Assembly: GCA_045531795.1 (NCBI GenBank)
Contig: JAZSET010000084.1
Coordinates: 1 to 59,248 of the forward strand
Reading direction: 5' to 3'
DNA from: Eubacteriales bacterium
GTDB taxonomy: Bacteria; Bacillota; Clostridia; Oscillospirales; CAG-272
Length of the DNA stretch: 59,248 nt
Shown here: piece after piece, positions 1-1,768 of the stretch
Position numbering within the stretch: the first letter of the stretch is position 1
How the letters are laid out: the number at the start of each line of letters is the position of its first letter
Program-made: the position numbers and the translations under genes
Notes under the pieces: model-generated
The model's database searches: none
What the model saw: the letters and a program-made list of their open reading frames with translations, nothing else
Told to the model about the DNA's origin: nothing

Positions 1-241
1 AGTATAAATAAAAATAAGTAGTAATAGTAGGCAGTGTTGAAACTGTTGAAAAACTCAAAAACGGTTGATATATCAAAAAAATTTTTTCTTTAATAAACCT
101 GTTTTTTTGTTTTTTCTATGTTTAAATAAATGTTAAAAACTTTTTTTGAAAAATTACTTTTTAAAATACAATTTTTTATTCTTTTGAACAAACAGTTAAT
201 TAAAATGAAATTAACATATTTTATCAACACCTGTTGAAAAC
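1..241. other. oriC: Chromosomal replication origin (oriC, dnaA-downstream half) with basal unwinding module: AT cluster, DnaA-trios, short GC spacer and tandem DnaA-box-like 9-mers
   Basis: Directly downstream of dnaA and very AT-rich. AAG-TAG-TAA-TAG-TAG at 16-30, GCAG at 31-34, TGTTGAAAC at 35-43, TGTTGAAAA at 44-52. Further boxes TTATCAACA at 221-229 and TGTTGAAAA at 232-240. Confidence 0.85.
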
Positions 242-1597
242 TTATGATTGAACCTCATCAATAATTTCATTTATATCTATTTCAAAAAGCGAATTACATT
301 TACTTTCATTGTCTATTTTCTTGACAGAAGCAATAACTGTGGAGTAATCTCTGTTGAATATACTTCCTATTTTAGGATAAGAAAGATCAGTTGTCTTTTT
401 AAGAACAAACATTGCAATTTGTCTTGCATTTGATATATTGCTTGTTTTTGACTTGCTCTTTAAATCATCAACAGAAATTCCGTATTTTTTTGAAACCGTT
501 TCAAGAACCTTGTCAATAGTAACAGTAACAGAAACCTTATCTCTTGCAATGTCTGATATTGCCTGTTTTGCTACCTCAAGTGTTATTTCCTTGTCAGATA
601 AAATCTTGATGGCACATAGTTTTTTAACGGCACCCTCAAGCTGTCTAATATTGCTTGTAAGATTTTCGGCAAGGAGATTTATAATTTCGGGTGAAAGAGT
701 AATTCCCTTGCTTTTTGCTTTGTTTGAAATAATTGCAGCACGCAGTTCAAAGTCCGGAGGATTTATATCAGCAGCTATTCCCCAGTCGAATCTCGTTAAA
801 AGCCTGTCCTCAAGATGTTTGATATCCTTTGCAGGGCGGTCAGAAGTCAGTATAATCTGTACGCCTTTTTCATAAATTGCATTGAATGTATGGAAAATTT
901 CTTCCTGTGTTGTTTCGGTTTTTGCAATAAATTGAATATCGTCAATCATAAGCATATCGGCATTTCTGAATTTGTTTCTGAATTGTTCCGTTGTTTTTTT
1001 GGATATGCTTTCAATAAGCTGATTTGTAAAATCTTCGCTTGTTACATAAACTATGTTAATATTGGGATTTTTCTTTTTAATATGATTTGTTATAGCGTGA
1101 AGTAAATGTGTTTTACCAAGTCCGCTCGGACCGTGTATAAACAATGGGTTATAGTCATAACCGGTATTGTTGGCTACGGCAACGCAGGCAGCGTGGGCAA
1201 GTTTGTTTGAATTACCTACAATGAAGTTATCAAATGTGTATTCTTCATTTCCCGTAAAATAAGAAACCTCATCAATTGAAGTAAGCTTTACTTCTTCAAT
1301 TTCCTTTTCAGGTTCAGAATCTGATAATTCATTGTATTTTTCTATGTTTTCTCCCTGAGCAATAACAATTATATCTATATGAAATCCAAGAACGCTTTCA
1401 AATACTTCCTCAAGTTTTCCTTTAAAAGAATTATTGAGAATGTTTTTTCTGTACATATTGTTTGCGGTCAAAACAGCTCTTTTTTCCGTAAGTTCGGTAA
1501 GAATAAGCTCTTCAAACCAGAGTTTGAATGTACTTTCGTTTACATTTTTCTTAAGTTCTTCAAATATAAGGGACCAGATTTCCATTAAATTATCCAT
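242..1597 (-). CDS. dnaA: Chromosomal replication initiator DnaA
   Basis: YTFDNFIVG, NPLFIHGPSGLGKTHLL (Walker A), MIDDIQF (Walker B), RQLEGA, and a domain IV helix-turn-helix. Confidence 0.99.
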   Translation of the reverse strand: MDNLMEIWSLIFEELKKNVNESTFKLWFEELILTELTEKRAVLTANNMYRKNILNNSFKGKLEEVFESVLGFHIDIIVIAQGENIEKYNELSDSEPEKEIEEVKLTSIDEVSYFTGNEEYTFDNFIVGNSNKLAHAACVAVANNTGYDYNPLFIHGPSGLGKTHLLHAITNHIKKKNPNINIVYVTSEDFTNQLIESISKKTTEQFRNKFRNADMLMIDDIQFIAKTETTQEEIFHTFNAIYEKGVQIILTSDRPAKDIKHLEDRLLTRFDWGIAADINPPDFELRAAIISNKAKSKGITLSPEIINLLAENLTSNIRQLEGAVKKLCAIKILSDKEITLEVAKQAISDIARDKVSVTVTIDKVLETVSKKYGISVDDLKSKSKTSNISNARQIAMFVLKKTTDLSYPKIGSIFNRDYSTVIASVKKIDNESKCNSLFEIDINEIIDEVQS

Positions 1598-1768
1598 ATT
1601 TTTAAAATCCTCTTTTATTTAAGAAATTTTACCATTTTATGATATCACGCGCGCGTATAATCTAATATATATATTATATAAAATAATATATCCTCGCTTC
1701 ATTATATCACATAGTTGTTGAAAATTCAATAGGAAAATACATTTTTAACAAAATAATTTTAAAAACAC

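Follow-up and report, generated by a model that had tools for sequence, protein, structure and literature searches.

Base-specific contacts between the initiator DnaA and its 9-mer box have been listed for R399, P423, D433, H434, T435, and H439 (PMC2533591), with R399 assigned to the TTA half of the box and the helix starting at 434 to its TnCACA half (PMC5742627). In the closest described structures, E. coli domain IV on TTATCCACA (1J1V) and the M. tuberculosis DnaA DNA-binding domain on box2 (3PVP), these residues sit on the same fold, a basic loop plus a helix-turn-helix (HTH), as in the DnaA considered here: that encoded by positions 242..1597 (minus strand) of contig JAZSET010000084.1 of a Eubacteriales bacterium (assembly GCA_045531795.1), whose 59,248 nucleotides are “the window” in what follows. 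Compared with the two structural systems, the window DnaA keeps P423, R432, D433, T436, and R407/Q408 (E. coli numbering) and has K, Y, S, and A at four of the six base-specific residues, while its boxes have A, not C, at position 6. The most likely explanation suggested by the sequences is stepwise co-evolution, in which a permissive Ser435 came first, drift of the boxes followed, and Tyr434 was added last. As to the locus as a whole, we lean towards regarding it as an ordinary essential DnaA with its cognate oriC of the Bacillus type, in an uncultured gut bacterium of the Oscillospirales type, box and reading head having drifted together step by step.

Read from its codons (AGA GAT TAC TCC ACA GTT ATT GCT TCT), the DnaA signature and recognition-helix start is RDYSTVIAS (residues 416-424; 326..352, minus strand), and the basic loop is KSKSKTSN (residues 380-387; 437..460, minus strand), in agreement with the first-pass annotation of this DNA. 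That annotation had also proposed substitutions equivalent to R399K, H434Y, T435S, and H439A, and these are borne out by sequence alignment and by structure superposition. In alignment to E. coli, Y418 (344-346) corresponds to H434, S419 (341-343) to T435, and A423 (329-331) to H439, and K384 (446-448) takes the place of the minor-groove Arg399; D433 is retained within the signature, and P423 close by in SYPKIG (365-382). A HMMER alignment to B. subtilis DnaA (8BTG) leaves the basic loop ungapped, K384 facing the Arg of KKR that is the R399 equivalent, with one deletion ahead of R416 (F.NRDYSTV vs. FgGRDHTTV); MAFFT alignment to E. coli domain IV gives K397 S398 K399, P423, and R432 D433 Y434 S435 T436 V437 I438 A439 S440. 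Domain IV itself, the HTH DNA-binding domain, takes up residues ~352-451 plus the stop codon (242..544, minus strand), as judged from the Bac_DnaA_C match at residues 361-428 and from superposition of an AlphaFold2 model. The model, of residues 323-451, has a predicted local distance difference test (pLDDT) score of 84, above 90 across the HTH; its superposition gives 1.3 A for 1J1V (92 columns) and 1.2 A for 3PVP (90 columns). Since the model fits both DNA-bound structures, the residue equivalences are structurally sound. The contact set R399/P423/D433/H434/T435/H439 thus reads K/P/D/Y/S/A here, four of the six canonical residues being replaced. Lys does stand in for R399, as the annotation had it, but the Arg is not near-invariant: among 172 DnaAs, in a sample weighted towards relatives of the window DnaA, residue 399 is R in 153, K in 14, Q in 4, and H in 1.

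The boxes too are altered, again as first reported. All good boxes of this species, that in the dnaA promoter included, are TT(A/T)TCAACA: TTTTCAACA three times, TTATCAACA, and GTTTCAACA. Those clustered at oriC therefore belong to the class in which A is allowed at position 6, here in the A form only. The 241 bp that follow the dnaA stop contain TWTCAACA four times, where 0.07 would be expected from the genome-wide rate (P ~1e-6); TTWTCCACA is absent from both dnaA flanks, so that this is not an origin of TTWTNCACA boxes, and the sole TNCACA-type match is ATTTTCACA, an 8/9 match that lies ~224 bp from the dnaA start on its upstream, rpmH side and is found in all relatives. Across the window's own genome (G000), clusters are formed by the A-type 8-mer only, those between genes including the ones at oriC and in the gyrB-gyrA spacer; when position 6 is C, T, or G, no cluster is seen anywhere in G000.

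In layout, the origin is Bacillus-type. The incC/basal unwinding system of B. subtilis oriC (DnaA boxes 6-7, GC spacer, DnaA-trios, AT-rich tract; 8BTG) has the same gene and module order, and differs in that the window boxes are TTTTCAACA/GTTTCAACA and the window trios TAC/TAT on the strand shown. Right after the dnaA stop comes a cluster of three boxes, of which the first is TTATCAACA (221-229, plus strand) and the second TTTTCAACA (232-240, minus strand), both assigned from sequence and orthology, while the third position is degenerate here (AAATTAACA). A tandem pair, TTTTCAACA (44-52) and GTTTCAACA (35-43), adjoins the unwinding module: the GC spacer CTGCC (30-34), the DnaA-trio-like TAC TAT TAC TAC (18-29), and, at 1-17, where the contig ends, the first part of the AT-rich unwinding region, all on the minus strand. 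The remaining TTTTCAACA (1716-1724, minus strand) lies in the dnaA promoter, between a predicted -35 element, TTGAAT (1729-1724), and an extended -10 element, TATAAT (ending at 1701), and is a probable autoregulatory site. Between the two box clusters, GGTTGATAT (63-71; reverse complement ATATCAACC) is a degenerate candidate for an extra box. A second A-type cluster is found a few kb from oriC in the gyrB-gyrA spacer (G000:C157:4711-4831), with four exact copies of TGTTGAAA and two near copies, and might serve to titrate DnaA or in regulation.

Boxes of this kind have precedents. The box consensus of Thermoanaerobacter tengcongensis, also of the Clostridia, is 5'-TTATCNACA-3' and is bound in vitro by its own DnaA (PMC1888806); Tt-oriC mixes TTATCCACA and TTATCAACA, much like the mixed origins of the window's His434/Ser435 relatives, but it keeps perfect canonical boxes, of which the window origin has none. 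For the Mollicutes, AT-rich relatives within the Bacillota, the published consensus is 5'-TT(A/T)TC(C/A)ACA-3' (PMC3322544, Table 2, citing earlier oriC work), with the same C/A variability at position 6; that consensus is degenerate and carries no link to DnaA residues, whereas in the window species the A form is exclusive. Since it has been published for both groups, the variant box is not new. On the protein side, helix-5 substitutions at 435, 438, and 439 (mostly Ser435 and Lys439) have been proposed to alter box reading in Epsilonproteobacteria (PMC5043019), which differ from the present case in a strict T at position 5, G4 protection, a position 6 that stays C, and retention of R399. Thermotoga maritima, with its 12-mer box, is the accepted example of re-coded DnaA specificity (PMC7561715); its DnaA (2Z4R, FNRSHPVVVDS) shares the one-residue-shorter FNR...(S/D)(H/Y) entry to the signature and a diverged helix, but has altered nearly all contact residues and the box length, where the window species has altered one base of a 9-mer. 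Nothing specific on covariation of domain IV and boxes was found in the literature searched, in which a connection of position 6 with residue 435, the combination of Tyr434 and Ser435 with exclusive A6, and a genus with all intermediates alive seem to be undescribed.

How far the protein and its boxes vary together was examined in 160-172 non-redundant DnaA loci for which flanks were at hand, by counting C-type (TWTCCACA) and A-type (TWTCAACA) boxes in the dnaA flanks. The named relatives are metagenome-assembled genomes from the gut or rumen that carry the labels Eubacteriales bacterium or Oscillospiraceae bacterium; a scan of metagenome contigs gave no close relatives (best identity 43%), and contributed only distant DnaAs to the pooled table. 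Genomes with His434/Thr435 (n = 109) have C- and A-type boxes in a ratio of 169:46, those with His434/Ser435 (n = 36) 86:89, those with His434/Ala435 (n = 3) 5:15, those with Tyr434/Ser435 (n = 9) 0:25, and those with Tyr434/Thr435 (n = 2) 6:2; in flanks below 40% GC the corresponding ratios are 89:15, 70:81, 5:15, 0:25, and 3:1. At least two A-type boxes are present in 26 of 39 genomes with Ser/Ala435 vs. 5 of 109 with Thr435 (Fisher p = 1e-14, ignoring shared ancestry), and purely A-type boxes in all nine Tyr434/Ser435 genomes vs. 6 of 39 with His434 and Ser or Ala435 (Fisher p = 3e-6, with the same disregard of ancestry). Statistically, the best correlate of TCAACA boxes is thus Ser or Ala at 435, found in 24 of 27 A-rich origins, and a fair reading is that these residues are permissive, not sufficient. 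Position 439 is not the correlate, since the C:A ratio is 32:8 with non-His439 and Thr435 and 10:16 with His439 and Ser/Ala435. The genome-wide excess of TTWTCAACA over a reversed control was considered as a further signal and discarded: it is 3-6 fold in almost every relative regardless of DnaA type, and therefore reflects composition or codon usage.

Within the genus, the boxes can be compared one by one. Spacers between dnaA and dnaN were aligned for 10 members, in which the order is three-box cluster, two tandem boxes, GC spacer, (TAC)n trios, AT-rich tract, and dnaN, with (TAC)n kept in all 10. C6 and A6 are swapped between species at orthologous boxes, some having TTTTCCACA where others have TTTTCAACA: the cluster boxes at 221-240 of the window have TTTTCCACA/TGTGGAAAA as their orthologues in L184 and L036, the tandem boxes at 35-52 occupy the position of TTTTCCACA in L185, L036, and L191, and the orthologue of the dnaA-promoter box is TTTTCCACA in L183, L185, L189, and L191. 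Giving residues 397-399 and 432-440 for each DnaA, L184 (KNK, RDHSTTLSS) has three TTTTCCACA and L185 (KKK, RDHSTVLSS) C-type boxes; boxes are mixed in L036 (G003; SSR, KDHSTVISA), L186 (KTK, RDHSTTLSS), and L191 (KKK, RDHSTVISS); TTATCAACA is at nearly every spacer box of L035 (G004; KTR, RDHSTVISS) and makes up nearly all boxes of L183 (KSR, RDHATVVSS); and L189 (KTK, RDHSTAISS) is A-type, but with a C-type promoter box. Only A-type boxes are found in the window species, including its second locus L182 (KSK, RDYSTVIAS), and in G001, G002, and G005 (KSK, RNYSTVIPS).

Tyr434 is rare in the order. A DNA pattern scan for R-D-Y-[ST]-T-V in a 401-genome sample of the order matched 81 genomes, in which the non-DnaA matches were Prs and unrelated frames; the motif was in DnaA only in G000 and G017, the pattern being one that misses RNYSTV and RDYTTI. 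In the tree, Tyr434 has about five origins. Its combination with Ser435 arose twice within the order, in the window genus and in the RDYSTVHSN lineage of G017; in the flanks of the nine genomes concerned, no TWTCCACA box, with its C at positions 5 and 6, is left, which in the window species takes in the promoter box. Within the genus, a DnaA tree made without domain IV is a near-polytomy in which the five Tyr434 genomes fall into one clade of weak support (46/63), and they were therefore counted as a single event. Tyr434 with Thr435 is found in L043 (RDYTT) and L188 (RHYTT), both of which retain TTTTCCACA, and a separate lineage, L187 (RDYSTVMHA), has one TTATGCACA and one TTATCAACA. The RHYTT sequence (D433H plus H434Y) is shared by L188 (P0019; GCA_902493065.1), P0018, and P0020, which have no dnaN downstream and TTTTCCACA upstream, so that Tyr434 by itself is not enough for canonical boxes to be lost.

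Two further peculiarities of the Tyr434 lineages may be mentioned. In the sister species G001, G002, and G005 (L003-L005/L032-L034), the base-contacting Asp433 has become Asn and position 439 is Pro (RNYSTVIPS): within this small clade, evolution of the recognition helix is rapid. In the RDYSTVHSN lineage (L042, which is G017, with L199, L204, and L078), the spacers are packed with TTTTGAAAA-, TTTTCAAAA-, or TTTTCACAA-like repeats, and position 8 of the box may be another that has changed there.

Several observations weigh against reading the association as co-evolution. Ser435 is also found in 12 of 60 C-type origins, and L097 (RDHSTIIHG) has eight canonical and no variant boxes; conversely, the three remaining A-rich origins carry Thr435. 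In Epsilonproteobacteria, Ser435 is paired with C at position 6 (PMC5043019). AT mutation pressure is a confounding factor, the Tyr434/Ser435 flanks averaging 30% GC. Tests that respect the tree are weak, and phylogenetic replication is thin. Among 18 tree-separated pairs of an A-rich and a C-type origin, Ser/Ala435 in the A-rich member is set against Thr435 in its partner in eight, the reverse holds in one, and the residue is the same in nine (p = 0.039), a value that came only from pairing by origin type, using unsupported branches. Nearest-tip pairs contrasting in residue 435 split 7:5, and on well-supported branches only 3-5 independent pairs are usable, giving no significance. The pure-A origins with Tyr434 and Ser435 amount to two independent lineages in one order, and support for the Tyr434 clade of the genus, as noted, is weak.

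A possible course of events under stepwise co-evolution is as follows. An old, order-wide change of Thr435 to Ser or Ala would have loosened discrimination at position 6, so that both TTWTCCACA and TTWTCAACA could be bound; under such a permissive protein, single boxes could then change from C to A or back between one species and the next, probably aided by AT pressure, and among living relatives the orthologous positions are indeed all C in some origins, mixed in others, and nearly all A in others again. The change of His434 to Tyr would be a recent and rare third step, on the branch to the window species, at a time when the boxes were already almost all A: Tyr434 may either shift the preference towards A6 (a T in the opposite strand) or have become tolerable when there was no longer a G:C pair to be read. 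A plausible physical basis is that without the Thr methyl there would be space for the methyl of the complementary-strand thymine, against which the Tyr would pack. R399K would be separate and earlier in the genus, when the boxes were still TTTTCCACA, and would concern the T-rich 5' half that is read in the minor groove, if anything; A439 would be part of the background of the order. Whether the outcome is a change of specificity is a further matter. It is possible, but we hold it only tentatively, that Ser435 plus Tyr434 constitute a natural two-step switch, yielding a DnaA that prefers TTWTCAACA and discriminates against TTATCCACA, the new pair of protein and box working apart from the canonical one.

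The first-pass annotation had gone further, proposing that the four substitutions co-evolved with the box as one package, R399K matching a change of position 3 from A to T, and H434Y, T435S, and H439A matching that of position 6 from C to A, to give a newly switched specificity. The four do occur together with an all-TTWTCAACA origin in the window species, and the Ser/Ala435 association and the absence of canonical boxes in the Tyr434 plus Ser435 genomes (0 canonical, 25 variant) agree with part of the proposal; RDYS-type DnaAs commonly paired with canonical boxes, which would have spoken against it, are not what was seen in those nine genomes. As a package, however, it is improbable. L035 and L183 have R399 and H434 and yet run TCAACA origins, so that neither K399 nor Y434 is needed for one; L184 and L185, with K399 and H434, stand next to TTTTCCACA boxes, so that K399 does not track position 6, and tree-separated pairs for K399 against position 6 split 3:3. 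T at position 3 is indeed found in 37 of 41 boxes (37 T:4 A) of K399 genomes vs. 146 of 274 (146:128) of those with R399, nearly all of the K399 genomes being of one genus, but T at this position lies within the canonical TTWTNCACA consensus (PMC7561715) and is already permitted by it. Residue 439 is S, A, N, or Y across the order, users of canonical boxes included, and the 32 canonical to 8 variant boxes of the DnaAs with Thr435 and non-His439 leave H439A without a tie to the box. With Tyr434 and Thr435, moreover, the adverse pairing with canonical boxes was seen, L043 and L188 both retaining TTTTCCACA.

A weightier rival, and the main one, holds that the boxes were eroded neutrally and that specificity is unchanged or sloppy, which we judge rather unlikely. 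DnaA would still prefer TCCACA or be broadly sloppy; AT bias would have eroded the boxes to lower-affinity TCAACA, filled cooperatively as low-affinity E. coli oriC sites are; and the helix substitutions would be passengers, neutral or mildly deleterious, in a gut lineage with a small genome. This would fit the flips between C and A among species that share residue 435 (9 of the 18 pairs), the very AT-rich flanks (30% GC), the helix of the sister clade, altered also at 433 and 439 (RNYSTVIPS) in a manner suggestive of relaxed constraint, and the weakness of the tree-based tests. It fits less well with the equally AT-rich flanks of Thr435 genomes, which keep canonical boxes (89:15 at GC <0.40), with the fixation of A at position 6 while other core positions are conserved across species, with the lack of any high-affinity canonical box in the oriC or dnaA promoter of the nine Tyr434/Ser435 genomes, or with the gyrB-gyrA spacer cluster, which is likewise A-type only. 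The TGTTGAA motifs might also not be DnaA boxes at all but sites of another protein, such as Spo0A: the 0A box is TGTCGAA, from whose core TGTTGAA is one base off, the genome encodes two proteins with Spo0A_C domains, and one motif cluster (C146:4811-4909) is 3.7 kb from one of their genes. This is very improbable, the motifs being full 9-mers that include the TTWT half and lying at the exact positions of relatives' TTTTCCACA boxes, among them the promoter box and the pair abutting the GC spacer and (TAC)n trios.

The gene itself is unexceptional apart from its reading head. The 451-amino-acid dnaA product, identified as an open reading frame (ORF) with Pfam matches to Bac_DnaA (PF00308, 3.8e-66, residues 117-276), Bac_DnaA_C (PF08299, 5.9e-25), and DnaA_N (PF11638, 6.4e-9), has AAA+ domain III with GPSGLGKTH and MIDDIQF, domain I (PF11638), and the HTH domain IV (PF08299 and structure superposition), and matches B. 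subtilis DnaA (8BTG) at E 1.7e-99 (HMMER). It is the sole DnaA_C match in G000, a 1.84-Mb, 91%-complete assembly. Divergent from dnaA upstream are rpmH, rnpA, yidD, yidC, and jag, as seen among the window ORFs. The window stops ~45 bp short of dnaN; the missing bases are visible in L182, a 104-kb contig of the same species from another sample, with a DnaA >99% identical, the same motifs, and the gene order rpmH<-|dnaA->|286-bp spacer|dnaN-recF-remA-gyrB. The conserved neighborhood rnpA-rpmH/dnaA/dnaN-recF-gyrB, with box clusters flanking dnaA, is thus present. In all, a DnaA >99% identical with identical motifs is found in two other assemblies (P0003 and P0004), so that the substitutions are not an assembly error.

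A few other features of the locus and genome are recorded here. The AT-rich dnaA leader contains an alternating-CG island, CACGCGCGCGTAT (1640-1652), also seen in L189 (TGCGCGCGTT) and L191 (TCGCGCGCACGCGT). At a contig end (G000:C30:11107-11149), three GAGTTTTCAACA repeats phased at 21 bp are iteron-like in look. On another contig (G000 C146:4811-4909 and C146:837-1148), four TWTCAACA, including the palindrome TGTTGATATTTCAACA, are situated between divergent ORFs; the Spo0A_C-domain gene near this motif cluster is the second of its kind, the other being on C91.

Origin finders and papers routinely assume a TTATCCACA-like box, arguing from the conservation of R399, D433, H434, T435, and H439 (e.g., PMC7561715). 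In a large gut-associated order those contact residues are not conserved, and position 6 follows residue 435, at least statistically. If binding has indeed changed, residues 434-435 (Thr, or Ser/Ala, or Tyr-Ser) would give a rule for choosing the box model in origin annotation, and the genus would offer a rare stepwise natural record of an essential initiator co-evolving with many sites; if binding is unchanged, origins would have to tolerate wholesale loss of high-affinity boxes. Should the two-step switch be real, the whole mutational path would be kept in one living genus, a tractable example of an essential protein-DNA code changing without loss of viability. The main interest of the locus is that it makes a question of specificity evolution directly testable by a few point mutants.

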